Of a stretch of 48,392 nt of DNA, positions 2,971 through 44,493 are shown piece after piece; position 1 is the first letter of the stretch; each line of letters begins with the position of its first letter. This stretch comes from Alphaproteobacteria bacterium. Lineage in GTDB: Bacteria > Pseudomonadota > Alphaproteobacteria > UBA9219 > RGZA01. The DNA lies in contig RGZA01000001.1 of the NCBI GenBank assembly GCA_010031785.1, forward strand, positions 1 through 48,392, in the 5' to 3' direction. Both the position numbers and the translations under genes were made by a program. A model generated the notes under the pieces. It searched no databases, was not told the origin of the DNA, and saw only the letters and a list, made by a program, of their open reading frames with translations.

Positions 2971-2971
2971 G

Positions 2972-26223: not shown

Positions 26224-26313
26224 GGAGGGGTGGCCGAGTGGTTGAAGGCGCACGCCTGGAAAGTGTGTAAACGGGAAACTGTTTCGTGAGTTCGAATCTC
26301 ATCCCCTCCGCCA
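26224..26313 (+). tRNA. tRNA-Ser (anticodon GGA), class II with a long variable arm and an encoded CCA
   Basis: Folded by hand. The acceptor stem is GGAGGGG/CCCCTCC. The anticodon stem CACGC/GTGTG carries the loop CTGGAAA. There is a long variable arm, and the T arm is GTGAG-TTCGAAT-CTCAT. A TATAAT box sits at 26208-26213. Confidence 0.9.
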
Positions 26314-26427
26314 ATTATTTGTCTTAGGACGTTTAGAGATGTCCAGAAAAAGCAGATAACGCCGTGTAAAACGAAGGTTTTCAGTGTAGGGTAGTCTGGA
26401 GTGATTTTTCAACATCCAGAAAAAAAC

Positions 26428-26476
26428 TGGGGCATAAATTGGGGCATAACCCAAGCCTCGGTAGAAAGATGCCCCA
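26428..26476. promoter_or_regulatory. three TGGGGCAT motifs just upstream of the integrase start, possibly arm-type or operator sites
   Basis: TGGGGCATAA occurs at 26428-26437 and 26440-26449 as direct copies. ATGCCCCA at 26469-26476 is an inverted copy. A separate pair of TCCAGAAAAA repeats sits at 26342-26351 and 26415-26424. Confidence 0.4.
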
Positions 26477-26478
26477 CT

Positions 26479-27690
26479 ATGCCGCTTACCGAAGTTAAGT
26501 GCAAAAACGCCAAGCCAAAAGAAAAGACTTATAAGCTTTACGATGCGCGTGGTTTATATTTGGAAGTAACGCCAAAAGCTAAGAAATACTGGCGTTTCAA
26601 ATATCAAATTAATGACAAGGAAAAACGTCTGGCTTTAGGGATTTACGATCAAGTTTCTTTGGCAGAGGCGCGTGAAGCCCGTGATGCCGCCCGCAAGCTT
26701 TTGCGGGAGCATAAAGACCCATCACTGGAAAAGAAGGAAAACAAGCGAAAAGCTGCGTTAAACAGTGAAAATTGCTTTGAAGCTATCGCCAAAGAATGGC
26801 TTGAAAACCGTAAGTGTTCATGGACGGAAGGCTATACATCCTATGTTCTAAAGCGTTTAGAGGCTGATATTTTCCCCTTTGTAGGGGCGTATCCCATTAA
26901 TCAGGTAACGGCAGCCCAGATTTTATCCGCGTTACGCAAGGTGGAGGCGCGGGGCACGAAAGATTTGCCTCATCGTTTACTTCAAACCTGTGGGCAGATT
27001 TTCCGTTATGCGATTGTTACAGGCCGCGCCGAACAAGACCCAGCCGCCGCATTACGCGGCGCATTGAAATCTGCAAAGAAAGAACACCATGCGTATCTCA
27101 CGGCAAAAGAAATGCCTGAGTTTATGAAAAAGCTTGCTGAGTATGATGGCGATCCATTGACCAAGCTGGCTTTGCGTTTGATTATTCTCACATTTTTACG
27201 CACCACCGAATTACGCGGCGCAAAATGGGAAGAATTTGATTTTGAAAAAGCGGAATGGCGGATTCCTGCCGAACGCATGAAAATGAAGGAAACACATATT
27301 GTGCCGCTTGCGAAGCAAGCGGTTGTAATCTTGGAACAGCTTAAAAAGTTAAACGAAAAAAGCGAATTTGTGTTTCCTGCACGTAGCAATGCCTTTAAGT
27401 GCATGAGCAATAACACCATGCTTTTTGCTCTTTACCGCATGGGCTATCACTCGCAAACCACCGTGCATGGTTTTCGTTCCACCGCCTCCACCATTTTAAA
27501 CGAATTGGGCTATCGTTCTGATGTGATTGAACGGCAACTTTCACATGGCGAACGCAACAAAATCCGTGCTGCATATAATCACGCTCAATATCTGCCTGAA
27601 CGCCGCACCATGATGCAGGGTTGGGCGGATTATTTGGATGAAATTATGGGTGGTAAAGTGATTATTGGTTATTTTGGAAAAACGGCATAA
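26479..27690 (+). CDS. int: tyrosine recombinase, P4-type phage integrase
   Basis: DUF4102-type N-terminus (MPLTEVKCKNAKPKEKTYKLYDARGLYLEVTPKAKKYWRFKY) and a catalytic C-terminus (HGFRSTASTILNE..., ERQLSH, AAYNHAQYLPERRTMMQGWADYLD). I place the start at the ATG at 26479 rather than the track's 26401. Confidence 0.92.
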   Translation: MPLTEVKCKNAKPKEKTYKLYDARGLYLEVTPKAKKYWRFKYQINDKEKRLALGIYDQVSLAEAREARDAARKLLREHKDPSLEKKENKRKAALNSENCFEAIAKEWLENRKCSWTEGYTSYVLKRLEADIFPFVGAYPINQVTAAQILSALRKVEARGTKDLPHRLLQTCGQIFRYAIVTGRAEQDPAAALRGALKSAKKEHHAYLTAKEMPEFMKKLAEYDGDPLTKLALRLIILTFLRTTELRGAKWEEFDFEKAEWRIPAERMKMKETHIVPLAKQAVVILEQLKKLNEKSEFVFPARSNAFKCMSNNTMLFALYRMGYHSQTTVHGFRSTASTILNELGYRSDVIERQLSHGERNKIRAAYNHAQYLPERRTMMQGWADYLDEIMGGKVIIGYFGKTA

Positions 27691-29996: not shown

Positions 29997-32900
29997 ATGA
30001 CTACCATCCACGATCTATTAAATCAATTTCGTGAAGCCGCAACTTCAAATCGGGATTTAGGTGATAAGTTTGAAAGGTTGATCGCTAATTATCTGGTTAC
30101 TGATCCGCTCTATAGCGACAAGTATAGTGATGTGTGGCTGTGGGGTGAATGGCCTGACCGTGGTAACAAGCCTGATACAGGAATTGATCTTGTCGCTAAG
30201 GAGCGTGGCACGGGGGACTATTGTGCTATTCAATGCAAATTTTATGACCCCAACTATAATTTACAAAAGGGCGATATAGACTCTTTCTTTACCGCATCGG
30301 GTAAAGCCCCATTCACGAGCCGGATGATTGTTTCTACCACCGATAAGTGGAGCAATCATGCAGAGGAAGCACTTAGAAATCAAAAAACACCTGTGCAGCG
30401 TTTGCGTGTGCAGGATTTGGCGGATAGCCCCATAGATTGGGGAAAATTTAGCTTAAAAAATCCAAAAGATATTAAACTAAAACCCAAGAAAAAGCTGCGT
30501 GATCATCAAAAAACTGCACTCGCCAAAGTAGCAGAAGGGCTAAAAATTGCTGATCGTGGCAAGCTAATCATGGCTTGTGGTACGGGCAAAACATTTACAG
30601 CTTTGAAGATTGCTGAGCACATGGTTCCCGCCAAAGGGTGCGTGCTGTTTCTTGTGCCTTCAATTTCACTTTTATCCCAAACTTTGCGGGAATGGACGGC
30701 AGAGGCGGATGTGAAGTTGCATCCTTTTGCCGTTTGCTCAGATGCCCAAGTAGGTAAGCGTTCAGAAAATGAAGATATTAGCACTCATGATCTTCCATTC
30801 CCCGCGACCACTGACACCAAAAAATTGGTTGCTCAGGTTGAATTGTTCACCGTCAAAAAAGAATTGGTCGTTATTTTTTCAACCTATCAATCTATTAAAG
30901 TTGTCGCGGATGCTCAAAAGAAAGGCTTGCCAGATTTTGATCTAATTATTTGTGACGAAGCCCACCGCACAACAGGCGTAACGCTTGAAGGAGAAGATGA
31001 ATCCCACTTTGTTAAAGTCCATGATCAATCCTACATTAAAGGTACAAAACGCCTTTATATGACTGCCACCCCGCGTATTTTCAGCGATGGCACAAAGACC
31101 CAAGCTAAAGATAGCGATGCAACCCTGTGCTCAATGGATGATGAAAATCTCTATGGCAAGGAATTGCACAGGCTTGGTTTTTCAGAAGCTGTAAGCAAAG
31201 GCTTATTGTCTGATTATAAAGTTATGGTACTTGCGGTTGATGAAAAATACGTCAGCAAAACATTTCAAAAACAAATTGCCGATGAAAATAACGAAATAAA
31301 ATTAGAAGATGCTGTTAAAATTATGGGTTGTTGGAATGGCCTGTCTAAACGCATGGGCAGAGATTTAAGCGGCAATCCATTGGAGGCTGATGCAAGCCCT
31401 ATGCGTAGGGCAGTAGCTTTCTCACGATCAATTAAAGATTCAAAACGGCTTACTGAGCTTTTTTCGCAAGTCGTGGATGAATATCGTAAAAAGCATCAAG
31501 AGGAAGAAAACACCCTTGTTTGTGAAGTTGACCATGTTGATGGTACTTTTAATGCACTTGTACGCAATAAAAGGCTCGATTGGCTAAAAGCTGAAACGTC
31601 ACCAAATACTTGCCGGATTTTATCAAACGCCCGTTGCTTATCCGAAGGTGTGGATGTTCCTGCGCTTGATGCGGTGATGTTCCTAAACCCGCGCAATTCG
31701 ATTGTAGATGTGGTGCAGTCGGTGGGGCGTGTGATGCGTAAAGCTGATGGGAAAAAATATGGCTATGTAATTCTTCCAATTGGCATCCCAGCAGATATGA
31801 CACCGGAAGAAGCCTTAAAGGATAATCAGAAATACAAGGTTGTCTGGCAGGTGCTTCAAGCCCTTCGTGCCCACGATGATCGGTTTAATGCCACAGTTAA
31901 TCAGATTGATTTGAATAAAGCCCGCCCTGAAAATATCCAAGTGATTGGTGTGGGCGGTGATGTTGAGGGTGAGGGCGCAAGTGAAAATGGCGCGGATAGT
32001 AAACCAAAAAACACCCAGCATGTTTTTGCCTTTCCTAACATTGAAGAATGGCGCGATGCAATTTATGCCAAAATTGTCGTTAAATGCGGGGATCGCCGTT
32101 ATTGGGAAGATTGGGCAAAAGATGTTGCCCAGATTGCCGAACGCCACATCACCCGTGTAAAAGCATTGCTGGAAAGTTCTGATCAACAACACCGCAAGGC
32201 ATTTGATGAATTTTTACAGGGTTTACGAGATAATTTAAACCCAAGCATTAGCCAAGATGATGCGATTGAAATGCTATCCCAGCATTTGATTACCAAACCA
32301 GTATTTGATGCCCTTTTTGAAGGGTATGAATTTACAAAGCAAAACCCCGTTTCCATCACCATGCAAAAAATGCTTGATGTATTGGAGGATCAGGCATTTG
32401 ATAAAGAAACCGAGAAGCTTGAAAAGTTTTATGACAGCGTAAAACAGCGTGTAAGCGGTATTGATAGCGCGGCAGGTAAGCAAAATGTTATTAAGGAGCT
32501 TTATGATAAGTTCTTCCGTACTGCTTTCCCGCGCATGGCTGAACGCCTTGGCATTGTTTATACGCCTGTGGAAGTGGTTGATTTTATAATTCGCAGTGCG
32601 GACGATGCCTTGCGCCAAGAATTTGGCGTGGGCTTAACAGATAAAGATGTTCATATCCTTGACCCATTCACGGGCACGGGTACATTCATTGTACGTTTGC
32701 TGCAAAACGGCCTAATTGATCCCGCTGATTTAGCGCGAAAATACCAAAGCGAATTACACGCCAATGAAATTCTATTGCTGGCTTATTATATTGCCGCGAT
32801 TAACATTGAGGAAACCTATCACGGGCTTTCTGGCGGTAAGTATAAACCGTTTGATGGCATCGTGCTGACCGATACTTTCCAAATGGCTGAAAGTGGCGGG

Positions 32901-34787
32901 GCGTTACATGATAAAATGTTTCCAGAAAATAATAAACGCGTGAAACGACAAAAAGAAAGCCCCATTCGTGTTATTATGGGCAATCCACCGTACTCAGTCG
33001 GGCAAACAAGTGAGAATGATGCCAACAAAAATTTAAAATATACTTTTTTGGATAGCAGAATAAGAGATACTTATGCTGTTCATTCAACAGCAACAAATAA
33101 AAACAGTCTTTATGATTCCTATATCCGCTCAATTCGTTGGGCGAGTGACCGCATAACAGATAAAGGCATCATTTGCTTTGTCAGTAACGGGTCATTTATC
33201 GATAACAATTCGATGGATGGTTTACGCAAATGTTTGGTGGATGAATTTGCATCGATTTATTGTTTTAATTTGCGCGGTAATGCTCGGACTTCTGGCGAGC
33301 AAAGGCGTATGGAAAAAGGCAATGTTTTTGGTGAGGGGTCTCGAACGCCAATTGCAATTACTTTGCTGATCAAAAACATAGAAAAGAAAGGTAAAACTAA
33401 GCTTTTCTACCATGATATTGGTGATTATTTGAGCCGTGAAGAAAAGCTAAAAATCGTTTCTGATTTTGGCAGTACAAAGAAAATTGACTGGCAAAAACTT
33501 ACACCAAACGACAGCCATGACTGGATTAATCAGCGTGACCCAGCGTTTGATAAGTTTATTGCAATCGGCGATAAAGAAAATGAACATGAAGCTGTCATTT
33601 TTGATACGTATTCTAGTGGTGTGAAAACAAACCGTGATACGTGGGCGTATAATTTCTCTGATAGAAATTTGACAGCTAACATGAAGGGTATGATCGATTT
33701 TTACAATCAACAAACTGAAAGTTTTGAGAAAGACAGAAAAGGGAAAAATTTCAAATCAACCGATGAAAGGAAGCAAATCGTTGAAAATTTTGTGGACACT
33801 GACCCCACGAAAATTAGCTGGTCTCGTGGCCTTAAGGAAGACCTGAGCCGTTTTGTAAAACACAGCTTTTCTAAAAGCTCCGTTTTTCAAAGCGTATACA
33901 GGCCTTTTTGCAAACAGTGGGCTTATTTTAATAAAGATTTTAATGATATGATTTATCAAATGCCAAGGTTTTTTCCTGAAAATGGCATAAGCAATTTAGC
34001 TATCTGTATGACAGGGGTGGGAGCGAGTAAAGAGTTCTCTGCATTGATTGCAAATGTTTTGCCCAACTTACATTTTCATGATACGGGGCAATCCTTTCCA
34101 CTTTTTAGCTATGAAAAGTCAGTGCCCACAAATCAAATTTCTATGCTGGCGGATGCCAATGATTACCGCAAAAAATCTAATATATCTGATGCAATTTTGA
34201 TAAAATTCAGGGATGCTTATGATGGTGCGATTAGTAAGGAAGATATTTTCTATTATGTTTATGGCATCTTGCACTCACCTGAATATAAAACGCGTTTTTC
34301 TTCTGACCTTAAAAAAATGTTGCCACGTATTCCGTTGGCAAAAGATTTTTGGGTATTTAGTAAAGCAGGGCGCGAGCTTGCCAAATGGCATTTAAACTAT
34401 GAAACGATTGAGCCTTATAAGCTGACTGAGCACGCGGCAAAGCTAACGCTTAATCCAAAAACAGATTACCAAGTCAGCAAAATGACATTTGGTAAGAAGG
34501 ATGGCGCGGTGGATAAAACCACCATCATTTACAACAGCCTTATTACCCTTACGGGCATCCCGCTAGAAGCCTATGAGTATGTAGTGAATGGCAAGCCTGC
34601 CCTTGAATGGATAATTGAGCGTTATCAATTCACTCGTGATAAAGACAGCCAGATTATCAATGACCCTAACGATTGGTCGGATGATCCGCGTTACATCATT
34701 GACCTTGTAAAACGCATTGTGCGCGTAAGCATTGAAACGATGAAAATTGTTGATGCCTTGCCGCCATTAAACGAACGAAAAGATTGA
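29997..34787 (+). CDS. type ISP restriction-modification enzyme (single-polypeptide nuclease-helicase-methyltransferase-TRD, LlaGI/LlaBIII-like)
   Basis: 1596 aa. It has an Mrr-like nuclease (GIDLVAKE...YCAIQCKFY), an SF2 motor (MACGTGKTFTAL, IICDEAHRTTG, LSEGVDVPALD), a gamma-class N6A methyltransferase (ILDPFTGTGTFIV, VIMGNPPYSVGQ) and a long C-terminal target-recognition region. Confidence 0.85.
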   Translation: MTTIHDLLNQFREAATSNRDLGDKFERLIANYLVTDPLYSDKYSDVWLWGEWPDRGNKPDTGIDLVAKERGTGDYCAIQCKFYDPNYNLQKGDIDSFFTASGKAPFTSRMIVSTTDKWSNHAEEALRNQKTPVQRLRVQDLADSPIDWGKFSLKNPKDIKLKPKKKLRDHQKTALAKVAEGLKIADRGKLIMACGTGKTFTALKIAEHMVPAKGCVLFLVPSISLLSQTLREWTAEADVKLHPFAVCSDAQVGKRSENEDISTHDLPFPATTDTKKLVAQVELFTVKKELVVIFSTYQSIKVVADAQKKGLPDFDLIICDEAHRTTGVTLEGEDESHFVKVHDQSYIKGTKRLYMTATPRIFSDGTKTQAKDSDATLCSMDDENLYGKELHRLGFSEAVSKGLLSDYKVMVLAVDEKYVSKTFQKQIADENNEIKLEDAVKIMGCWNGLSKRMGRDLSGNPLEADASPMRRAVAFSRSIKDSKRLTELFSQVVDEYRKKHQEEENTLVCEVDHVDGTFNALVRNKRLDWLKAETSPNTCRILSNARCLSEGVDVPALDAVMFLNPRNSIVDVVQSVGRVMRKADGKKYGYVILPIGIPADMTPEEALKDNQKYKVVWQVLQALRAHDDRFNATVNQIDLNKARPENIQVIGVGGDVEGEGASENGADSKPKNTQHVFAFPNIEEWRDAIYAKIVVKCGDRRYWEDWAKDVAQIAERHITRVKALLESSDQQHRKAFDEFLQGLRDNLNPSISQDDAIEMLSQHLITKPVFDALFEGYEFTKQNPVSITMQKMLDVLEDQAFDKETEKLEKFYDSVKQRVSGIDSAAGKQNVIKELYDKFFRTAFPRMAERLGIVYTPVEVVDFIIRSADDALRQEFGVGLTDKDVHILDPFTGTGTFIVRLLQNGLIDPADLARKYQSELHANEILLLAYYIAAINIEETYHGLSGGKYKPFDGIVLTDTFQMAESGGALHDKMFPENNKRVKRQKESPIRVIMGNPPYSVGQTSENDANKNLKYTFLDSRIRDTYAVHSTATNKNSLYDSYIRSIRWASDRITDKGIICFVSNGSFIDNNSMDGLRKCLVDEFASIYCFNLRGNARTSGEQRRMEKGNVFGEGSRTPIAITLLIKNIEKKGKTKLFYHDIGDYLSREEKLKIVSDFGSTKKIDWQKLTPNDSHDWINQRDPAFDKFIAIGDKENEHEAVIFDTYSSGVKTNRDTWAYNFSDRNLTANMKGMIDFYNQQTESFEKDRKGKNFKSTDERKQIVENFVDTDPTKISWSRGLKEDLSRFVKHSFSKSSVFQSVYRPFCKQWAYFNKDFNDMIYQMPRFFPENGISNLAICMTGVGASKEFSALIANVLPNLHFHDTGQSFPLFSYEKSVPTNQISMLADANDYRKKSNISDAILIKFRDAYDGAISKEDIFYYVYGILHSPEYKTRFSSDLKKMLPRIPLAKDFWVFSKAGRELAKWHLNYETIEPYKLTEHAAKLTLNPKTDYQVSKMTFGKKDGAVDKTTIIYNSLITLTGIPLEAYEYVVNGKPALEWIIERYQFTRDKDSQIINDPNDWSDDPRYIIDLVKRIVRVSIETMKIVDALPPLNERKD

Positions 34788-34793
34788 AAAATC

Positions 34794-36245
34794 ATGAGTA
34801 ACATATCGGATTATATGGAGGACGGTGATGAATCTGATCTTCTTCAAAATGCGATTGATTCAGTCCAATTGGGAATTGAAGATTTTAAAAATGACGATCC
34901 AAAACGTATTTTATCAGCTTTTCGTAATCTTCATGCTGGCGTGTTGCTTTTATGTAAAGAAGTATTGCTGCGCTTATGTCCTAAAGATTCAAAAGAGGTG
35001 CACATAAAAGCAAAACAACAAGCCATAAAAGATTCTGATGGCAATATAATTTTTGTTGGTGTCGGTGATAATACAGTAACTGAGCATCAAATTATTGATA
35101 GATTTAAGAGCCTTGGAATTAAAACTGATCTATCCAAATTAAATGCACTCACTAAAATTAGAAATGACATTGAGCATTATTATTCACAAAATCTATCAGA
35201 AATTCAACCAAGGCGTGGTGGCGCAAAACTATTTAAAAATCTAAAGCGGGTAATCATTGATGAAATCTCAATGGTACGTGCTGATTTGTTAGATGCCGTT
35301 GATCATGCGCTGCAAATAAACAGGAAAGATGCTCGTCCATTCGGTGGTGTGCAAATAATTTTAGTGGGGGACTTCCTACAACTGCCACCCGTTGTAAGAG
35401 GTGATGAAGAAGAAATTCTAAGTAGCATGGGATATGAAACCCCGTTTGCCTTTAGTGCAAAATGCTTACAGAAAAATAAAGTTGTTACCATTGAGCTTTC
35501 AAAAGTTCACCGTCAAGATGATCCAGAATATATACGCTTGTTAGGCAATATACGATCAGGAGATGATTTAGAAGAAACTGTAAAAGCCTTTAATAATACA
35601 TGTTTTGGACAACATAAACGGGATGCCGCCCCCGTTATTCTGACAGGAACAAACGCTATTGCTGAAAAGTATAATCAGCGTGGGCTGAAAAGCCTTCCAA
35701 GCCAAGATGTGCTGTATGAAGGCATAATAAGTGGCGAGTTTAATCTTGATAAAGATAAGCTTCCTACGCCTGAGCTTCTAAACCTTAAAGTCGGTGCTCG
35801 AATAATGATGGTAAAAAACGACAAAGGTAAAAAGTGGGTCAATGGCTCATTGGGTGAGGTGGTGCGGCTTGGGCAGGATCGTATTTGGGTAAAACTTGAT
35901 GATAAAGACGGAGAGCATGAGGTAGCCAAAGCAGCTTGGGAAAACATTCGCTATGAATGGGATGATGAAAAACAAAGCATTGAAGCCAAAGTAGTGGGCA
36001 GCTATTCACAAATTCCCGTTATTCCTGCTTGGGCACTGACTATTCACAAGGCGCAAGGCTTAACGCTTGAAAATGTTCGTGTGGATTTGGCTACAGGCGC
36101 GTTTGCTTCTGGGCAGGCCTATGTTGCTCTATCAAGGGCACGCTCACTGGAAGGGCTATCTTTTGCCACACCATTGCGTGTTACTGATGCCATTGTTGAC
36201 AGGCGTCTTATTCAAAGTGAGCATAGCTTCAAACAAATCGATTAG
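34794..36245 (+). CDS. fusion ORF: N-terminal HEPN/DUF4145-like segment joined to a Pif1/RecD-family helicase that starts at the Walker B motif (no Walker A)
   Basis: 483 aa, starting 7 nt after the type ISP stop. Roughly aa 1-140 end in KIRNDIEHYY, an Rx4H motif. From about aa 150 the ORF is Pif1-like (VIIDEISMVRADLLD, GGVQIILVGDFLQLPPV, VHRQDD, WALTIHKAQGLTLE, GQAYVALSRARSLEGL). No GxxxxGK[ST] motif occurs anywhere. Confidence 0.6.
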   Translation: MSNISDYMEDGDESDLLQNAIDSVQLGIEDFKNDDPKRILSAFRNLHAGVLLLCKEVLLRLCPKDSKEVHIKAKQQAIKDSDGNIIFVGVGDNTVTEHQIIDRFKSLGIKTDLSKLNALTKIRNDIEHYYSQNLSEIQPRRGGAKLFKNLKRVIIDEISMVRADLLDAVDHALQINRKDARPFGGVQIILVGDFLQLPPVVRGDEEEILSSMGYETPFAFSAKCLQKNKVVTIELSKVHRQDDPEYIRLLGNIRSGDDLEETVKAFNNTCFGQHKRDAAPVILTGTNAIAEKYNQRGLKSLPSQDVLYEGIISGEFNLDKDKLPTPELLNLKVGARIMMVKNDKGKKWVNGSLGEVVRLGQDRIWVKLDDKDGEHEVAKAAWENIRYEWDDEKQSIEAKVVGSYSQIPVIPAWALTIHKAQGLTLENVRVDLATGAFASGQAYVALSRARSLEGLSFATPLRVTDAIVDRRLIQSEHSFKQID

Positions 36246-36715: not shown

Positions 36716-38170
36716 ATGTTTGAGCAAGTCTTCAAAAATATCGATGATGTGCTGCACAAGGATGCAGGCTGCACCAGCGAGCTGGATTATGCTGAGCAAA
36801 CCTCATGGATTTTATTCCTGAAATATCTCGACGACTTGGAACGCGAGCGGGCGATGGAAGCCGAGCTTGTCGGCAAGCCATACGAATATATCATTGATGC
36901 GCCATACCGCTGGGAATCATGGGCAGCACCCAAAGCGACCGATGGCACATTCGATCACAACAAGGCATTGACAGGCGACGACCTGCGCGAATTTGTGGAT
37001 ACCAAGCTGTTCCCCTACCTCAAAGGCTTCAAACAAAAAGCGGATAGTCCCGATACCATCGAATATAAAATCGGTGAGATATTCGGCGAAATCCGCAACA
37101 AGGTGCAAAGCGGCTTCACCCTGCGCGATGTGCTGGAACGGGTGGACGAACTGCGCTTCCGCTCGCAGAAGGAAAAGCACGAACTCTCGCACCTGTATGA
37201 AACTCGCATAAAAAACATGGGCAATGCAGGGCGTAATGGCGGCGAGTATTACACTCCGCGCCCGCTTATTCGCGCCATGATTCAGGTGACGAAACCAAAA
37301 ATCGGTGAGCGGATTTATGATGGCGCGGTTGGCTCCGCAGGCTTCTTGTGTGAAGCCTATGAATACCTGCGCGCCAGCAAAGAACTGACCACCAGCGATC
37401 TGCAAACGCTGCAAACCAAAACCTTCTATGGTAAGGAAAAGAAAAGCCTCGCCTATGTCATCGCCATCATGAACATGATTTTGCATGGTATCGAGACGCC
37501 GAACATCCTGCACACCAACACGCTGGCCGAGAATATCAGCGATATTCAGGAAAAAGACCGCTTCGATGTCATCCTCGCCAATCCACCGTTTGGTGGGAAG
37601 GAACGCAAGGAGGTGCAGCAAAATTTCCCCATTAAAACGGGTGAAACCGCTTCCCTGTTTTTGCAACACTTCATCAAGTCACTAAAGGCGGGTGGCCGCG
37701 CGGCGATTGTTATTAAAAACACCTTCCTGAGCAATACAGACAACGCCTCCGTCGCTCTGCGTAAGGAGCTGCTGACAAGCTGTAACCTACACACGGTGTT
37801 GGATTGTCCTTCGGGAACCTTCCAAGGTGCAGGCGTTAAAACGGTGGTGCTTTTTTTTGAAAAAGGTTCGGCCACGCGCAAGGTGTGGTTTTACCAACTC
37901 AAGCCAGACCGCAACATGGGCAAAACCAACCCATTAAACGATGAGGACGTGAAGGACTTTGTAAAGCTGCAAGCCAGCTTCGCCAATTCCGATAATTCAT
38001 GGACGGTCGATGCGGCGACGATTGACCCCACCACCTATGACCTTTCGACGAAGAACCCGAATAAGGCCGAGGAAGTTGCAGCCCGCAGCCCGCAAGCCAT
38101 CATCGACGAAGTATTGTCGCTGGATAACGAAAGCGCGGTCATTATGACGCGCATCAAAGCAATGCTATAA
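36716..38170 (+). CDS. hsdM: type I restriction-modification system methyltransferase subunit
   Basis: 484 aa with an HsdM_N-type N-terminus, motif I (IYDGAVGSAGFL) and motif IV (ILANPPFGGKE). Confidence 0.95.
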   Translation: MFEQVFKNIDDVLHKDAGCTSELDYAEQTSWILFLKYLDDLERERAMEAELVGKPYEYIIDAPYRWESWAAPKATDGTFDHNKALTGDDLREFVDTKLFPYLKGFKQKADSPDTIEYKIGEIFGEIRNKVQSGFTLRDVLERVDELRFRSQKEKHELSHLYETRIKNMGNAGRNGGEYYTPRPLIRAMIQVTKPKIGERIYDGAVGSAGFLCEAYEYLRASKELTTSDLQTLQTKTFYGKEKKSLAYVIAIMNMILHGIETPNILHTNTLAENISDIQEKDRFDVILANPPFGGKERKEVQQNFPIKTGETASLFLQHFIKSLKAGGRAAIVIKNTFLSNTDNASVALRKELLTSCNLHTVLDCPSGTFQGAGVKTVVLFFEKGSATRKVWFYQLKPDRNMGKTNPLNDEDVKDFVKLQASFANSDNSWTVDAATIDPTTYDLSTKNPNKAEEVAARSPQAIIDEVLSLDNESAVIMTRIKAML

Positions 38171-38184
38171 AGGAGAGTGATCCC

Positions 38185-38601
38185 ATGCAAGATATTCGCT
38201 GGAAGCAACGTTTTAATAACTATATCAAAGCCCTACAAAATTTGACAGAAGCTGTTGCATTGTCGCAAGAACGACCACTTTCAAAATTGGAACAGCAGGG
38301 ATTGATTCAAAGTTTTGAGTTCACGCATGAACTCGCGTGGAACGTACTGAAAGACTATTTGGAACATAAAGGAGCCGAGGGCTTAATTGGCTCAAAAGAT
38401 GCATCACGCGAAGCTTTTAAGAACGACCTGATTGAAGACGGCCTAACATGGATGGACATGATAAAATCGCGAAATCTCACCACTCATACCTACAACCCCG
38501 AAGTGGCCGAAAACATTACCATTGATGTGGTGGAGCGGTTTTACCCAGCCTTTGCAAGTATGGCTAAAAAATTCACCCCCATGTACGATGCGCAGGATTA
38601 G
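38185..38601 (+). CDS. HEPN-domain protein, HI0074 / nucleotidyltransferase-substrate-binding family (toxin of a HEPN/MNT pair)
   Basis: 138 aa. The start MQDIRWKQRFNNYIKAL and the segment FEFTHELAWNVLKDYLEHKG are typical of the family. The Rx4H motif is SRNLTTHTY. Confidence 0.85.
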   Translation: MQDIRWKQRFNNYIKALQNLTEAVALSQERPLSKLEQQGLIQSFEFTHELAWNVLKDYLEHKGAEGLIGSKDASREAFKNDLIEDGLTWMDMIKSRNLTTHTYNPEVAENITIDVVERFYPAFASMAKKFTPMYDAQD

Positions 38602-38604
38602 CTG

Positions 38605-40122
38605 ATGCAATACGGCCTTAGCAGCGATACCATTCAACGAATCAGCGGCGTGTTTTCGACATTCCCTGCCGTAGAAAAGGCGGTGCTGTATGGTTCGCGT
38701 GCCAAAGGTAATTATAAAACGGGGTCTGATATTGACCTGACCCTATACGGCGAGCAGCTCACCCCTGAGCTGTTGGGAGATATATCCGAAGCATTGGATA
38801 ATTTACTGCTGCCCTATACCATCGACCTGTCGCTTTTTGATGAGCTTGAACACGCCAAACTACGTGAACATATCGAACGTGTAGGTGTATCATTTTATAT
38901 GCGTGCGGAAACGAATACTCCGCGCGGTAGAAGCTGGCGGATGAAAAGATTAGGGGATATTTGTAAAACAGGGGCTGGCGGAACGCCGCTGACCTCAAAA
39001 GAAGAGTATTACGAACAAGGCACAATACCGTGGTTGCAGAGCGGCGAGGTCAATCAGGGTGAGATTTTTGCTGCTAAAAACTTTATCACACCGCTGGGAC
39101 TCGAAAACTCATCCGCCAAACTTTTCCCGAAGAACACGGTTTTAATCGCAATGTATGGGGCGAACGCTGGCGAAGCAGGCATACTTCGCTTTGAAGCATC
39201 CACTAATCAGGCGGTCTGTGGCATATTGCCCAGTGACTATTTTGAGCCAAAGTTCCTTTATTACCTTTTTCTTTCAAAATACGATGAGTTAGCGTCGCAG
39301 GCCGTGGGCAATGCTCAGCCAAACATCTCACAGGCAAAAATTAAAGATACGCTCGTGCCACTAGTAGATATTACCGAACAGCAGCGGATTGTGGCGGTGT
39401 TGGATGATGCGTTTGCGGGTATTGCGACCGCGACCGAGAACGCCAAAAAGAACCTACAAAACGCCCGCGAGCTGTTTGAAAGCCACCTGCAATCCATCTT
39501 CACAACCAAAGGCAATGGGTGGGAGGAGAAGAAGCTAGGCGATGTCGCACACCATTCTCTCGGAAAAATGCTTGATAAGGCTAAGAACAAAGGTGTCGCT
39601 AAAAAATATCTTCGCAACATCAATGTGCGCTGGCTCAACTGTGATTTGTCTGACCTTTTGGAAATGAGATTTCTGCCGGAAGAGGAAGAAAAATATACTG
39701 CAATCAAAGGAGATGTGCTGATTTGTGAAGGTGGCTATCCTGGTCGCGCAGCGATTTGGCAAGAAGACTATGCAATTCACTTCCAGAAAGCCCTTCACAG
39801 GGTGCGGTTCCGTGAGCCAAAATATAATAAGTACTTTGTATATTACTTATACTATCTAGAAAAATCGGGTTTGTTGAAGGCTCATTGTGCAGGTGCTGGC
39901 ATTCAACATTTTACTGGTCAGGCACTGCACAAACTTCCTTTAGTTATGCCTCCTCTGGAACAAATAGATGACATTGTTGCCCGCGTGGATACTCTCTCCA
40001 CCGAAACCAAGCGCCTTGAAGCCATTTACCAGCAAAAGCTGGAGATTCTGGCGGCATTGAAACAAGCTATTCTGCAAAAAGCATTTGCGGGTGAACTGCG
40101 CATGGATAGGTTGGCAGCATGA
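38605..40122 (+). CDS. hsdS: minimal nucleotidyltransferase (MNT, HI0073-like) fused in frame to the type I R-M specificity subunit HsdS
   Basis: 505-aa ORF. Aa 1-98 are MNT (VLYGSRAKGNYKTGSDIDLTL..., EHIERVGVSFY). From M99 (ATG at 38899) it is a normal two-TRD HsdS (SWRMKRLGDICKTGAGGTPL..., with conserved helices QQRIVAVLDDAF and ...LKQAILQKAFAGEL). There is no stop codon between the two parts. Confidence 0.8.
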   Translation: MQYGLSSDTIQRISGVFSTFPAVEKAVLYGSRAKGNYKTGSDIDLTLYGEQLTPELLGDISEALDNLLLPYTIDLSLFDELEHAKLREHIERVGVSFYMRAETNTPRGRSWRMKRLGDICKTGAGGTPLTSKEEYYEQGTIPWLQSGEVNQGEIFAAKNFITPLGLENSSAKLFPKNTVLIAMYGANAGEAGILRFEASTNQAVCGILPSDYFEPKFLYYLFLSKYDELASQAVGNAQPNISQAKIKDTLVPLVDITEQQRIVAVLDDAFAGIATATENAKKNLQNARELFESHLQSIFTTKGNGWEEKKLGDVAHHSLGKMLDKAKNKGVAKKYLRNINVRWLNCDLSDLLEMRFLPEEEEKYTAIKGDVLICEGGYPGRAAIWQEDYAIHFQKALHRVRFREPKYNKYFVYYLYYLEKSGLLKAHCAGAGIQHFTGQALHKLPLVMPPLEQIDDIVARVDTLSTETKRLEAIYQQKLEILAALKQAILQKAFAGELRMDRLAA

Positions 40123-41048
40123 GTATAAAAAGTTACTACCGCATCATGCTAGGCCAGAAGAGCGTTCATGCTGATGAGTGCTTTGCGGGCAACTTTATTG
40201 GAACAGATTTTGGTATTCATCAAAATCTTGCTCATAAATTGCCAGAGGAATGGCGCGCATTTAACAAAGAGTTCATCCCCATTTACCTTGCAGGTCATCC
40301 CGACAAAACCAAGATTAGTGCTGGTCTTGCTTGCGGTGCGCTATGGACAGTTTCTAAGGGCATACAGCAAGGGGATGTTGTGTTGTGTCCCGATGGTATG
40401 GGCAAATATCGTGTCGGTGAAGTTAACGGCGGATATTATTACGAAGAGGGAAAAATTCTGCCACACCGTCGGCCTGTCACATGGCTGAATGTTGTGATTG
40501 ACCGCGCAGAAATGAGCGAGGCGTTGCGTAACTCCACAGGCTCTATCGGCACAGCAAGCAACATCACCAAGCACAGTGATGAACTTGTTAAACTTATTGG
40601 CGGCGTATCTGCGCCTACGCTTATTTCGACGGACGCAACTGTTGAAGACCCATCTTCATTCGCGCTTGAAGCACATTTGGAAGAGTTTCTTGTTAAAAAT
40701 TGGGCGCATACTGAACTCGGTAAAGATTATGATATTTACGAGGAAGACGGTGTTAAGGCGCAGCAATACCAAACCGATACGGGGCCACTCGATATTTTGG
40801 CTATTAGCAAAGACAAAAAACGTCTTTTGGTTGTGGAGTTAAAGAAAGGCCGCGCCAGTGATGCAGTCGTTGGACAGACAATGCGCTACATGAGTTTTGT
40901 ACAGGACGAATTGGCGGATGATGGGCAGACGGTGCTTGGTGCAATTATCGCACATGAAGATGATCAAAAAATCCGCCGTGCATTATCAATGACGAATAAC
41001 ATCGTCTTCTATCGGTATAAAGTCAGCTTTAATTTGGTGAAGACATAA
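40119..41048 (+). CDS. hypothetical two-domain protein: unassigned N-terminal domain plus a C-terminal PD-(D/E)xK (NucS/DUF91-like) nuclease domain
   Basis: 309 aa. Its start overlaps the hsdS stop as ATGA, and a single nucleotide separates its stop from the hsdR start. The nuclease motif is TGPLDILAISKDKKRLLVVELKKGRASDAVVGQTMRYM. Confidence 0.7.
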   Translation: MSIKSYYRIMLGQKSVHADECFAGNFIGTDFGIHQNLAHKLPEEWRAFNKEFIPIYLAGHPDKTKISAGLACGALWTVSKGIQQGDVVLCPDGMGKYRVGEVNGGYYYEEGKILPHRRPVTWLNVVIDRAEMSEALRNSTGSIGTASNITKHSDELVKLIGGVSAPTLISTDATVEDPSSFALEAHLEEFLVKNWAHTELGKDYDIYEEDGVKAQQYQTDTGPLDILAISKDKKRLLVVELKKGRASDAVVGQTMRYMSFVQDELADDGQTVLGAIIAHEDDQKIRRALSMTNNIVFYRYKVSFNLVKT

Positions 41049-41049
41049 T

Positions 41050-43377
41050 ATGAATGAAGCTGAAACCCGCGCCGAGTTGATTGACCCCGCATTGAAAGCG
41101 GCGGGGTGGGGCGTGGTCGAGGGCAGCCGCATCCAGCGGGAATACCATATTACCCAAGGGCGGCTGGAAGGTGCTGGCAAGCGCAGTAAGCCCATGATTG
41201 CGGATTATGTGCTGATGTATCGCAACACTAAGTTGGCGGTGATTGAGGCCAAGAAGCGCGACCTGCCCGTGAGCGATGGCGCAGCCCAAGCCAAAACCTA
41301 TGCCGAGAAGCTGAGCATCCGCACCGCCTATGCCACCAATGGCGCAGCGGTTTACCGCATTGACATGGAAACTGGAGAGGAGGGCGAGCTTACTTGCTAT
41401 CCCACACCTAACGAGTTATGGAACATCACCTTCGCCAAAGAGAATGCATGGCGCGACCGTTTTGCTGCTGTTCCATATGAAGATAGCGGTGGGCAAAAAC
41501 CTGCGCGGTATTATCAAGACAATGCAGTAAGCAAAACATTAGAAGCAATCGCCGATGGCAAAGACCGTGTGTTGCTGACGCTAGCAACAGGTACAGGCAA
41601 AACCTTTATTGCCTTTCAGTTGGCGTGGAAGCTATTTCAAAGCCGTTGGAATCTAAGTCGTGAGCCAGTGCGCCGTCCGCGCATTCTTTTTCTAGCCGAC
41701 CGCAACATCCTTGCCGACCAAGCCTATAACTCTTTCTCCGCCTTCTCCGAAGATGCACTTGTGCGGATTGCACCTGACGAAATTCGTAAAAAAGGTCGTG
41801 TGCCGAAGAACGGCAACATCTTCTTTACCATTTTTCAAACTTTCATGAGTGGCACGGATGCCGAGGGTAAGCCTGCGCCAAACTTTGGTGACTATCCCCC
41901 TGACTTCTTCGATTTCATTATCATTGACGAGTGCCATCGCGGTGGTGCGAATGATGAGGGAAACTGGCGTGGGATTTTGGAGTATTTTTCACCCGCTGTG
42001 CAGCTTGGCCTCACCGCCACGCCCAAGCGCAAGGGCAACGTCGATACCTATCGCTATTTCGGCGACCCAGTTTACATCTACTCCCTTAAAGAGGGCATCA
42101 ATGACGGATTCCTTACTCCATTCAAGGTCAAGCAAATCGCCACCACGCTGGATGATTACGTTTACACACGCGATGACGAAATTATCGAGGGCGACTTAGA
42201 AGAAGGCAAGCGTTATACCGAAAGTGACTTTAACCGTATCATTGAGATTAAAGAGCGCGAGCGATACCGCGTGAAACTGTTCATGGATGCCATCGATCAG
42301 CGCGAGAAGACGATTGTGTTCTGCGCCACGCAAGACCACGCCGCTGCTGTGCGTGACCTTATCAACCAAACGAAGACTAGCCCCAATCCTAACTACTGCG
42401 AGCGCGTGACTGCCCGCGATGGTGCGCTGGGCGAACAGCACCTCAAAGCGTTTCAGGATAATGAAAAGACTATCCCGACCATTCTCACCACCTCGCAAAA
42501 ACTATCGACTGGGGTGGATGCCCGCAATGTTCGCAACATCGTGTTGATGCGTCCCGTAAACTCAATGATTGAGTTCAAACAAATTATCGGGCGCGGCACG
42601 CGCTTGTTTGATGGCAAGGATTACTTCACCATCTACGATTTCGTGAGGGCTTACGAGCATTTCAGCGACCCAGAGTGGGATGGTGAGCCAGTCGAGCCAA
42701 CCCCAACCACCAAGAAGGGTAGCGAAGGCACGGAAGCGCCCAAGCCAGACGAAGGCTTAGAGGGCAGTGAAGAACCAAAGCAACGCCCAAAGAAAATAAA
42801 AATCAAATTGGCGGATGGTAAGGAGCGCACCATTCAAAGCATGATGGCCACCACCTTCTGGGGTGCAGATGGCAGACCGTTGTCAGCAGCCGAATTCTTA
42901 CAAAATCTATTCGGTGAGTTGCCTGAGCTGTTCAAGGATGAAGACGAACTGCGCGCAATATGGAGTAAACCAGATACACGCAAGGCGCTGCTCGACAAGC
43001 TATCGGAAAAAGGGTTCGGCACAGAGCAGCTTACTGAAATCAAACGGATGATTGATGCGGAGAAAAGCGACCTGTTCGATGTGTTGGCTTACGTCGCCTT
43101 TGCGCTCAGCCCCATCACACGGCAGGATAGAGTTGCCAAGCAGAAGAGCCAAATTTTTGCCCATTACGAGGACAAGCAGCGCGAGTTTCTTGATTTTGTC
43201 CTGTCGCAGTATGTGAAGGAAGGCGAGAAAGAACTCGACCAAGCCAAACTGCCGATACTGTTAGAGCTAAAATATCAGGCTGTGGGTGATGCCACCGAAC
43301 GACTAGGCAGCATTGCCTCCATCCGTGGCGTGTTCATGGGCTTCCAGCAGTATTTGTATGTGCGTGACGTCATTTAA
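41050..43377 (+). CDS. hsdR: type I restriction enzyme endonuclease/translocase subunit
   Basis: 775 aa with an HsdR N-terminus (MNEAETRAELIDPALKAAGW), an SF2 motor (LATGTGKTFIAF, IIIDECHRG, QIIGRGTRL) and an EcoEI_R_C-like tail (SDLFDVLAYVAF). Confidence 0.95.
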   Translation: MNEAETRAELIDPALKAAGWGVVEGSRIQREYHITQGRLEGAGKRSKPMIADYVLMYRNTKLAVIEAKKRDLPVSDGAAQAKTYAEKLSIRTAYATNGAAVYRIDMETGEEGELTCYPTPNELWNITFAKENAWRDRFAAVPYEDSGGQKPARYYQDNAVSKTLEAIADGKDRVLLTLATGTGKTFIAFQLAWKLFQSRWNLSREPVRRPRILFLADRNILADQAYNSFSAFSEDALVRIAPDEIRKKGRVPKNGNIFFTIFQTFMSGTDAEGKPAPNFGDYPPDFFDFIIIDECHRGGANDEGNWRGILEYFSPAVQLGLTATPKRKGNVDTYRYFGDPVYIYSLKEGINDGFLTPFKVKQIATTLDDYVYTRDDEIIEGDLEEGKRYTESDFNRIIEIKERERYRVKLFMDAIDQREKTIVFCATQDHAAAVRDLINQTKTSPNPNYCERVTARDGALGEQHLKAFQDNEKTIPTILTTSQKLSTGVDARNVRNIVLMRPVNSMIEFKQIIGRGTRLFDGKDYFTIYDFVRAYEHFSDPEWDGEPVEPTPTTKKGSEGTEAPKPDEGLEGSEEPKQRPKKIKIKLADGKERTIQSMMATTFWGADGRPLSAAEFLQNLFGELPELFKDEDELRAIWSKPDTRKALLDKLSEKGFGTEQLTEIKRMIDAEKSDLFDVLAYVAFALSPITRQDRVAKQKSQIFAHYEDKQREFLDFVLSQYVKEGEKELDQAKLPILLELKYQAVGDATERLGSIASIRGVFMGFQQYLYVRDVI

Positions 43378-43591
43378 AGGAACCCAACTCTTCCTTCTGC
43401 TGCCGCATCGCCTGATTTATATTCTTAATAAATGCTCGTATCTCGCGCCATTTGCCACCTTTGTTGGCATTACGCGCTGCACGGATTTTACCTTCATTCG
43501 TGCGTGGGCCGGTGGATCGCGTCCATGGTTGCCATCGCCGGATCGCCTCGGCCTGTTGCGCCCGTCGTTCCGATGTCCATTCCTTGCTCAT
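43370..43591 (-). CDS. small conserved mobile-element hypothetical protein
   Basis: 73 aa and basic (WTSERRAQQAEAIRRWQPWTRSTGPRTNEGKIRAARNANKGG). It overlaps the 3' end of the preceding ORF in another frame, so it may be a separate gene or a frameshifted continuation. Confidence 0.4.
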   Translation of the reverse strand: MSKEWTSERRAQQAEAIRRWQPWTRSTGPRTNEGKIRAARNANKGGKWREIRAFIKNINQAMRQQKEELGSFK

Positions 43592-44297
43592 GTTGATCCT
43601 CCAATAGTTCGTTTTGCACAGAATCTGAATTTCCCGCGCGCGCGTGCGTATTGCTATAAAAACCCCCGTCTGACTTGTTCACGGTATTGTTGACCTGTTG
43701 CGGCCCGTTGGCGATATTGGCTTGCTTTGCAAAAACCACAGGCGGGTTTTTAATCGCCGCCAATGTTTCCAGCGTCGCGCGGCATTGCCCCTGTGCTTTT
43801 AAGGCAAGGCGCATATAACGGTCTGCGGCATCAAGATATTCGCCCATATTGAGTTGTGCGCGGCGTGCCAGTGAAGCGAATATAGAGTCTAATGCAAGTG
43901 CTTGGCTGTAGCCACCATCGGCGCGGATATCGACGCCAGCAGCAACACGTCCTGCGCTGTTTTTTAATCCATCATGATGTTTAAAAAGATAATGCCAGCC
44001 GCCAGAGCGTGTGCCGTGAACCCGTGTTTTTGGAATCTTTGTACCATGTTCAGCAAGCCACTTGTCACCACCGTGACGGGGATCGATATCAAGCACATCA
44101 AGTCCTGACAGTGCGCCTGTTGGTACGCCAATTAATGACGCAGGGTATTTTGTGAAAAGCTGTTTGACGGATTTCCCATCACAAGTTGCATCCTTGAATC
44201 CATGGGGGCATGCTGGTTTTTTATCCTCACGGACGGGGAAAACTGGAAGCCCATGCGCAGCTAAGGCTAGGGCTTTGTCAAATATTCTGTCACTCAT
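43494..44297 (-). CDS. bifunctional primase-polymerase (PrimPol) N-terminal domain, truncated and joined to unrelated sequence
   Basis: The PrimPol pattern (HGLPVFPVREDKKPACPHGFKDAT..., GLDVLDIDPRHGG, THGTRSGGWHYLF, GVDIRADGGY) breaks off before the expected PPS motif. The remaining about 140 aa are unrelated. I place the start at the ATG at 44297; the track ORF extends to 44357. Confidence 0.6.
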   Translation of the reverse strand: MSDRIFDKALALAAHGLPVFPVREDKKPACPHGFKDATCDGKSVKQLFTKYPASLIGVPTGALSGLDVLDIDPRHGGDKWLAEHGTKIPKTRVHGTRSGGWHYLFKHHDGLKNSAGRVAAGVDIRADGGYSQALALDSIFASLARRAQLNMGEYLDAADRYMRLALKAQGQCRATLETLAAIKNPPVVFAKQANIANGPQQVNNTVNKSDGGFYSNTHARAGNSDSVQNELLEDQHEQGMDIGTTGATGRGDPAMATMDAIHRPTHE

Positions 44298-44493
44298 GGC
44301 TATCACCGCTTTCTTTGCGGTGGGTTTCGAGCCACTCCAAAACATCTTTCTTGGCAATCAGGCGGCGGCTGCCAACCTTAAATGATTTAAGCTCTTTGTT
44401 TTTTAGGGCTTCCCAGATAGTAGCGGCAGATAATCCCACCGCATGGGCAAGCGGCTTTACGCCATATGCCAATTTTTCATCACTTAACTGCAT
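44290..44493 (-). CDS. excisionase-family helix-turn-helix DNA-binding protein
   Basis: 67 aa. VKPLAHAVGLSAATIWEALKNKELKSFKVGSRRLIAKKDVLEWLE is an HTH_17/excisionase-like pattern. It overlaps the PrimPol start by 8 nt. Confidence 0.75.
   Translation of the reverse strand: MQLSDEKLAYGVKPLAHAVGLSAATIWEALKNKELKSFKVGSRRLIAKKDVLEWLETHRKESGDSHE

Follow-up and report, generated by a model that had tools for sequence, protein, structure and literature searches.

In type VII toxin-antitoxin (TA) systems, a HEPN RNase is neutralised by a minimal nucleotidyltransferase (MNT), and the closest characterised relative of the pair described here is found in Legionella pneumophila. The Legionella HEPN toxin (lpg2920) is a Mg-dependent RNase relying on Q44/E47, which degrades rRNA, and its MNT antitoxin (lpg2921) poly-AMPylates Tyr105 of the RX4HXY motif, with one MNT per HEPN tetramer (Jin et al. 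2024, PMC11586414). The present analysis concerns a HEPN-MNT pair located in a type I restriction-modification (R-M) operon on a 48,392-nt stretch of alphaproteobacterial DNA (contig RGZA01000001.1, assembly GCA_010031785.1; this whole stretch is called the window hereafter), where the MNT frame runs on into HsdS, the specificity subunit, to give a single MNT::HsdS open reading frame (ORF) of 505 amino acids (aa). As in Legionella, the HEPN gene comes first and is followed by MNT, and the HEPN is of the NTase_sub_bind/HI0074 type with the RX4HXY motif and the Q/E metal site. The Legionella MNT is devoid of the alpha-4 helix seen in MntA and stands alone as a protein of 108 aa, whereas the MNT of the window runs into a 395-aa HsdS and the pair is inserted into the hsdM-hsdS interval of a type IB system; restriction and HsdS go unmentioned in the Legionella study (PMC11586414). 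By analogy with that pair, poly-AMPylation of the RX4HXY tyrosine and a Mg-dependent RNase toxin are expected here as well.

The canonical type VII pairs, HepT/MntA of Shewanella oneidensis (SO_3166/SO_3165) and HEPN/MNT of Aphanizomenon flos-aquae, also comprise a HEPN RNase neutralised through oligoAMPylation of the RX4HXY tyrosine by a GSX10DXD nucleotidyltransferase, but there MntA is encoded upstream of HepT, the toxin is a DUF86/HepT-type HEPN, the MNT carries the extra alpha-4 helix and no fusion to an R-M protein exists. A HEPN RNase gene inside a type I hsd operon is known from PrrC-EcoprrI, in which a HEPN anticodon nuclease is encoded within a type IC R-M operon (Anantharaman et al. 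2013, PMC3710099). The R-M proteins restrain this RNase and a phage that disables restriction frees it, which is the model suggested below for the fusion. PrrC, however, has an ABC-ATPase regulatory domain, no MNT partner and a non-covalent association with EcoprrI, while the window encodes a bare 138-aa HEPN whose link to R-M is a covalent antitoxin-HsdS fusion. An MNT acting as a covalently attached regulatory module is also found in the single-chain MNT-HEPN protein FhepTA (PMC13000451); its MNT is fused to its own toxin, whereas in the window the toxin is a separate protein and the MNT is joined to a DNA-recognition subunit with no relation to it. The same gene order, HEPN-MNT family and EcoAI-type R-M occur in unfused hsdM-HEPN-MNT-hsdS operons (Limnohabitans loci L064 and L067, and loci L050, L132 and L136 of the scans reported below), and there, too, an MNT tail of about 7-20 aa leads immediately to the MKxGW of HsdS. 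The difference is that the MNT stop and the HsdS start overlap (ATGA/GTGA), giving two separate, translationally coupled proteins.

HEPN toxins and TA pairs in R-M operons, the type VII HEPN-MNT chemistry and MNT-HEPN single-chain fusions are already known. Literature searches (MNT/HEPN/HsdS fusion; HI0073/HI0074 with type I restriction; hsdS with nucleotidyltransferase or antitoxin) found no paper describing an MNT-HsdS fusion. A paper on the Shewanella CGI48 island was considered as an earlier description and set aside, the locus being of similar size but a different type I locus. The MNT::HsdS architecture is real and widespread and apparently undescribed; its function is hypothetical.

A single reading frame encodes MNT and HsdS

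In the initial annotation of the window, a HEPN/MNT module was placed between hsdM and hsdS, with the MNT fused in frame to an otherwise normal HsdS. The coordinates and motifs given there all agree with the sequence and the ORF list, and the position of the module is supported by Pfam and NCBIfam matches and by the gene positions. The MNT frame opens at the ATG at 38605 and closes at the TGA at 40120-40122 with no stop in between (38605-40122, + strand, as are all parts of the operon), and GSRAKGNYKTGSDIDL, with the GSX10DXD motif, occupies aa 30-45 of the 505-aa ORF. The MNT domain (aa 1-98, 38605-38898), delimited by homology and structure match, ends in ERVGVSFY at nt 38898, from where the open frame reads MRAETNTPRGRSWRMKRLGDICK...; a linker defined by alignments and by low model confidence (MRAETNTPRGRS, aa 99-110, 38899-38934) leads into HsdS proper (aa 111-505, 38935-40122). 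Pfam detects Polbeta/NTP_transf_2 at aa 12-102 and Methylase_S in two stretches from aa 110 (140 bits), NF007278 matches aa 110-499, and the HsdS part is 64-68% identical to free-standing HsdS proteins of 392 aa. On sequence grounds, chance is ruled out as the source of a 505-codon open frame across two well-scoring domains. A Logan contig of run X1 is identical to the window over 38100-40181, whole ORF included. A second contig (X2), which comes from an independent study of a lake, shows no difference over 38208-38924, a segment extending 26 nt past the FY codons; the junction is the same in both.

Since there is no stop in frame, any ribosome initiating at 38605 yields the 505-aa fusion and the antitoxin domain is present only attached to HsdS, barring proteolysis. 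The usual HsdS start Met, found within MKxGW in relatives, is replaced by Arg107 in the window (RGRSW). In-frame ATGs are present at 38899, which is the first linker codon and lies 8 codons before the usual Met position, and at 38941, 6 codons after that position and two codons past the Trp; an additional, shorter HsdS may be made from either of them. The 12-residue linker matches ERANQSAAMKKG of the fused locus L006 codon for codon and equals the ERANQGAAMKKG linker of relatives in length. Calculated Shine-Dalgarno (SD) duplex energies are -9.1 kcal/mol for HEPN (strong), -4.1 for MNT::HsdS and -3.0 for hsdM. Anti-SD pairing upstream of the ATGs at 38899 and 38941 amounts to -3.7 and -3.6 kcal/mol, respectively. 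Of 215 internal ATGs sampled in four large genes, about 24% pair at least as strongly, and genuine starts of the window are often equally weak.

A predicted type VII pair within a type IB restriction operon

The HEPN toxin gene (HI0074/Lpg2920 type, 138 aa, 38185-38601) stops at 38601 and the MNT starts at 38605, so toxin and antitoxin are adjacent and co-oriented in one operon. The HEPN protein contains RNLTTH at aa 96-101 followed by T-Y, which matches RX4HXY (RNLTTHTY, aa 96-103), and residues Q42, E45, R96, H101 and Y103 are all present. The catalytic residues of the MNT, G30, S31, D42 (in D42-I-D44), D44 and D74, are invariant in the alignment used (A2). Across the family described below, RX4HXY is common to the HEPNs of all fused and unfused relatives examined; E45, R96, H101 and Y103 are found in the HEPNs of all 10 fused genome loci and Q42 in 9 of them, and the five MNT residues are kept in 81-82 of 82 fused MNTs. 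This conservation indicates that both enzymes are under purifying selection.

Comparison with the Legionella structures gave E = 1.1e-44 for the HEPN (toxin 8XDJ) and E = 5e-22 for the MNT (8XEH/8XEO), and the curated cut-offs were passed for NTase_sub_bind (144.6 vs 31.8 bits), the HI0074 family TIGR01987 (87.5 vs 55.8 bits) and Polbeta (47.3 vs 26.9 bits). By these matches, HEPN and MNT are predicted to be a type VII TA pair of the HI0073/HI0074, Lpg2920/2921 branch. Two other assignments were discarded. The HepT/MntA equivalogs of the DUF86 branch (Shewanella type) scored 19.5 (NF047751) and 31.8 bits (NF047752) against a cut-off of 60, and their gene order is reversed. An anticodon nuclease of the PrrC/RloC type does not fit a single-domain HEPN of 138 aa without the N-terminal ABC-ATPase, even though the protein may act like PrrC. 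The HEPN protein was matched by no PADLOC model.

The upstream gene, hsdM (36716-38170, 484 aa), encodes a type I N6-adenine methyltransferase subunit (Pfam N6_Mtase 216.8 bits, HsdM_N 34.2 bits), and hsdR lies downstream at 41050-43377 (775 aa; NCBIfam NF046051, Pfam ResIII and EcoEI_R_C). HsdR belongs to the EcoAI/FtnUII family, with 845.4 bits for NF046051 against a cut-off of 550 and 100.9 bits for EcoEI_R_C. The other features of a type IB system are also present, namely an HsdM with HsdM_N and N6_Mtase and an HsdS made of two target recognition domains (TRDs) split by conserved helices. No match to the operon came up when PLSDB plasmids and complete E. coli genomes were searched by megablast.

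An AlphaFold2 model of the 505-aa protein was built from a 29-sequence alignment. Its mean predicted local distance difference test score (pLDDT) is 89, with two confident bodies at aa 1-100 and 110-500, joined by a disordered linker of 8 residues with values below 50 (aa 102-109). In the HsdS body, a central conserved helix (about aa 256-300) separates TRD1 from TRD2, which is followed by a C-terminal helix (about aa 451-494). Foldseek matched the MNT body to the L. pneumophila MNT antitoxin 8XEO (TM-score 0.96, root-mean-square deviation 0.7 A), to HI0073 (1NO5) and to MntA, and the large body to the HsdS structures 1YF2, 5YBB, 2Y7C and 7BST, the last from EcoR124I. The type IB EcoAI HsdS reportedly tolerates circular permutation (Janscak and Bickle 1998), and this fits with an exposed N-terminus able to bear an extra domain.

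The fusion is conserved in a large, divergent family

An alignment with related loci had been called for in the initial annotation, and it reveals that the missing stop is conserved in a large and divergent family. Sampling followed three lines: a protein search with the 505-aa ORF, locus scans with the MNT only, and a HMMER search of cluster representatives. The MNT-only scans, ascertained by the MNT domain and blind to the downstream sequence, covered genomes (one per species, 80 loci kept) and metagenome contigs (80 loci). Together, 82 distinct MNT::HsdS proteins from many phyla were collected. Fusions accounted for 20 of the 120 best matches in the protein search; they measure 477-538 aa, show 40-66% identity, have the same three Pfam domains with different TRDs, and come from Methylococcaceae, Legionella, Ca. 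Contendibacter, Rubritalea and metagenomes. The MNT frame continues for 379-424 aa into HsdS in 10 loci of the genome scan (L001, L003, L005, L006, L008, L009, L010, L015, L017 and L032), which span Methylococcales, Smithellaceae, Alphaproteobacteria, Syntrophus, Competibacteraceae, Planctomycetota, Legionella and Saprospiraceae, and 6 of the 80 metagenome loci are fused (L082, L087, L103, L126, L128 and L130). When MNT plus 20 aa was used in HMMER against 1.84 billion cluster representatives (50% identity), 44 of the 150 best matches were fusions of 460-544 aa and about 11 more were truncated fusions. The genome scan also yielded a degraded member from Desantisbacteria (L013, 5735-6070), where a 111-aa in-frame deletion remnant joins MNT aa 1-92 to the last ~19 HsdS residues (...ELKKSLLKKAFAGEL); this remnant is followed by a gene with Schlafen/AlbA_2 and Fic-like_C domains.

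Exact protein look-up added six contexts with the organisation hsdM-(optional gene)-HEPN-MNT::HsdS-(optional genes)-hsdR, the last with EcoEI_R_C. An intact HEPN gene lies directly upstream in all 20 type IB (EcoAI-family) fused loci inspected; an apparently absent or split HEPN in L166 turned out to be a masked run of N, the gene being intact. Neighbour-joining trees were computed for HEPN plus MNT and for MNT alone; being short and unbootstrapped, they served for the clustering statistic and not for exact counts of fusion events. The fused state clusters on the MNT tree, requiring 30 parsimony changes vs about 71 for shuffled labels, with fused clades of 24, 13 and 8. As judged from these alignments, the fusion is not a one-off lost stop. 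In databases these proteins are labelled 'restriction endonuclease subunit S', one UniRef entry adding '(Modular protein)'.

Linker anatomy and unfused relatives

Free-standing MNTs extend 1-29 aa past ...FY (median 7, typically ER... or EK...) in all but two of about 70 non-fused genome loci, which bears out the earlier statement that the MNT of the window ends where its homologues stop. In the fusions the MNT tail leads directly into the HsdS N-terminus (xGW..K.LGD). The FY-to-W linkers of the 82 fusions range from 5 to about 60 aa; at least 15 length classes occur, and every one preserves the frame. Only 25 of 81 fusions have a Met among the five residues that precede the Trp, the place of the start in free HsdS (MKxGW). 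The others mostly read LPxGW, RKGW or similar, and the linker of L087, HRDKKG, consists of six residues with no Met. Most of the family has no start codon at the HsdS boundary, and HsdS is therefore obtainable only as the fusion in these members.

About one fifth of the 160 MNT-ascertained loci are embedded in a type I operon, and where hsdS follows MNT, 16 loci are fused (plus the one remnant) vs about 10 split. In a sister group, MNT and hsdS are separate genes, and the stop of the first shares bases with the start of the second in an ATGA or GTGA. Its members are L027, L050, L064 and L067, which belong to Limnohabitans/Burkholderiales, and L115, L121, L132, L136 and L122, the last in a decayed state. 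A one-base frame change in such an overlap generates a fused junction with the Met retained, as in the subclade of the window (ERANQGAAMKKGW). According to the initial annotation, a stop after ...FY in close relatives would have spoken against the fusion. Such a stop does exist, literally, in Limnohabitans L064 and L067, whose MNT is 58% identical to that of the window and ends about 7 aa after ...FY, but these loci form the separate clade with the ATGA/GTGA overlap and are not close relatives that broke the fusion.

In a third wiring into an EcoAI-type operon, seen in L028, L030, L062, L088 and L143, the same HEPN-MNT pair follows hsdS and precedes hsdR, whose start codon overlaps the MNT stop (ATGA/GTGA); those of the loci with named sources are of Verrucomicrobia type. 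MNT::HsdS (522 aa) was also found in another type I family in L032 (Saprospiraceae, 1926-4635) and in L126 and L128, whose HsdR has HSDR_N, T1R_D3-like and T1RH-like_C domains and whose HsdS tail reads LLPKLMSGEV. The presence of the fusion in a second type I family implies that it arose or was transferred more than once. No HEPN gene was detectable in these three loci, a YhcG/DUF1016 PD-(D/E)XK nuclease gene occupying the HEPN position. Genes for HigB-like and Peptidase_M78 proteins lie downstream in this type.

Proposed function and alternative explanations

We favour, with a probability of roughly 0.6, the interpretation that the 505-aa ORF is a maintained bifunctional protein, an MNT joined to a type IB HsdS, which controls the upstream Lpg2920-type HEPN RNase toxin. 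On the model of the Legionella homologue, the MNT domain would use ATP to AMPylate HEPN Tyr103 in RX4HXY and thereby keep the RNase inactive. An enzymatic antitoxin could act in small amounts, and a low-abundance HsdS fusion with a weak SD could therefore control a HEPN with a strong SD. Since M2S1 and R2M2S1 are both built around HsdS, the fusion would set the antitoxin:HsdS dose at 1:1 and would place the antitoxin, probably with bound HEPN oligomers, on the restriction complex; these are the weakest steps of the scheme. The toxin would be freed upon loss of the operon or of hsdS (addiction), and also when the complex is disabled, for instance by phage anti-restriction proteins, which would amount to a second-line, PrrC-like abortive response. 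That the tether puts the antitoxin under the control of the restriction complex is something we infer by analogy with PrrC-EcoprrI (PMC3710099). That the fusion is conserved suggests an intrinsic connection of DNA restriction with an RNA-cutting toxin. In a related proposal, possible if doubtful, the restriction complex is itself the antitoxin, HEPN being AMPylated only while MNT::HsdS sits in an intact, functional M2S1 or R2M2S1. Were the complex bound by a phage anti-restriction protein (a Stp-like peptide, or a DNA mimic like Ocr or ArdA) or hsdS lost, the MNT activity or HEPN binding would be turned off, and fresh unmodified HEPN would stop translation.

Several points weigh against a bifunctional MNT::HsdS protein acting as the HEPN antitoxin. 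AMPylation, toxicity, M2S1 assembly and any trigger are predictions for every member of the family, and the predicted template modelling score (pTM) of the AlphaFold2 model is 0.65, which leaves the mutual orientation of the two domains undefined. The sister group with separate genes shows that a covalent link is not required for the module inside an R-M operon. A potential ATG or GTG start is usually kept at the HsdS boundary in the subclade of the window, so free HsdS may be made. Finally, the L032-type fusions without HEPN imply that an MNT on HsdS may not always be a HEPN antitoxin.

Under a scheme of two products in the window and its subclade, free HsdS from an internal start would be the main working subunit and the fusion a minor, antitoxin-supplying species. 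The usual start residue is M, V, L or I in most of the subclade of the window (ERANQGAAMKKGW and similar), a GTG is confirmed in the DNA of L015 and L017, preceded in L017 by an SD-like GGGAG, and the ATG of L009 and L010 is preceded by runs rich in G (GGGGG, AAGGGG). The window has lost the usual Met and acquired an ATG as the first codon of its linker, and that HsdS can work unattached in the same operon type is shown by the unfused sister clade. The pairing at 38899 and 38941 is, however, within reach of many internal ATGs, as reported above, and L003, L006 and L008 have no SD at their internal ATG. Moreover, 56 of 81 fusions are without a Met at the boundary, where a hydrophobic Leu is usual (LPxGW), suggesting a structural rather than a start-codon constraint, and one Met per 12-codon linker is expected by chance about 1 time in 5. 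We regard two products as rather unlikely.

The initial annotation had also raised the option of a meaningless lost stop, with HsdS initiated internally. In this scenario a one-base frame change in the ATGA overlap would have created a read-through protein with no selected role; the unfused relatives differ only by the frame offset at the ATGA/GTGA overlap, which makes the step mutationally easy, and the junction Met is kept in part of the family. As a general explanation this is disfavoured, since most family members have no start at the boundary, while internal starts are possible in the window itself. Linker indels and nonsense mutations would soon split the frames under neutrality, but the open frame has held across MNT identities of 45-77%, many phyla and many TRDs, the linkers of all lengths are in frame, one of the deep fused clades holds 24 cluster representatives and a second type I family is fused as well; we thus find a neutral accident improbable. 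A repurposed MNT is very improbable. Such an MNT would have a target other than or besides HEPN (HsdM, HsdR, a phage protein or nucleic acid) or would serve as an ATP/nucleotide sensor modulating the R-M complex, which the L032, L126 and L128 operons with their YhcG/DUF1016 nuclease gene upstream would accommodate; the conserved catalytic residues point to some enzymatic activity under selection. Against it stand the intact upstream HEPN with the Tyr acceptor motif in every type IB fused locus inspected and the modification of HEPN by the closest characterised homologue (PMC11586414). Loss of a stop or a frameshift at the junction through a sequencing or assembly artefact has nothing in its favour and is scarcely credible, given that contigs of two independent studies are identical across the junction and that the same in-frame junction recurs in dozens of unrelated assemblies.

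Communication between a HEPN/TA layer and R-M is understood for essentially one case, PrrC-EcoprrI. In MNT::HsdS, the link would lie within the polypeptide, an enzymatic antitoxin being covalently carried by the subunit that nucleates the restriction complex. With this arrangement in dozens of lineages and natural unfused controls one frame shift away, the coupling of immunity to suicide is directly testable, and type VII TA biology gains a concrete candidate trigger. If the restriction complex were itself the antitoxin, anti-restriction would be turned into abortive infection and type I systems would gain an addictive behaviour that they otherwise lack. For annotation, the 'restriction endonuclease subunit S' label conceals a second enzymatic domain, and PADLOC matches to specificity subunits barely cover the MNT: among the best 25 of 114, all start at or after aa 105 except two, which reach back to aa 79-89 and so take in the final 10-20 residues of the MNT domain.

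Genomic context and neighbouring genes

The window derives from a freshwater or lake metagenome, and the operon is carried by an island beside a tRNA-Ser gene (26224-26313). The island comprises a tyrosine integrase gene (26401-27690), a Type ISP restriction-modification enzyme of 1596 aa (29997-34787), a PIF1-like helicase ORF (34794-36245, + strand) and, beyond hsdR, a Prim-Pol gene (43494-44357, - strand) and an HTH_17 excisionase-like gene (44290-44493, - strand). A search for an attR repeat of the tRNA-Ser island, made with a 12-nt seed, was negative. The PIF1-like ORF begins 7 nt past the end of the Type ISP gene. Its matches to the PIF1 and AAA_30 profiles set in at profile positions ~82-87, so that the Walker A part seems to be missing. 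An Rx4H-like string, KIRNDIEHYY, occurs within its first ~135 aa, which match PADLOC PDC-S64 and could form a HEPN-like domain on a truncated helicase.

An accessory gene of 309 aa (40119-41048, + strand) is located between hsdS and hsdR. Its ATG shares bases with the hsdS stop (ATGA), and a single base separates its end from hsdR. The product has a C-terminal PD-(D/E)XK domain of the NucS_C/YhcG_C-like kind by Pfam, while its N-terminal 180 aa are unassigned, and it matches the PADLOC candidate defence family PDC-S02 over its full length (E = 1e-151). The gap between fused hsdS and hsdR appears as a cargo site elsewhere too, three PhdYeFM/PIN pairs being present there in Ca. Contendibacter (L165, 6569-8685). 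In L161 (4566-8518), the HEPN-MNT::HsdS unit is flanked by RhuM and RhuM-Fic genes. Another fusion partner was seen in a Nitrospira metagenome-assembled genome (L077, 6001-6760), in which an MNT of the same family bears a 155-aa C-terminal extension with a JAB/MPN-like HSHxHxxxxxxSxxD motif.

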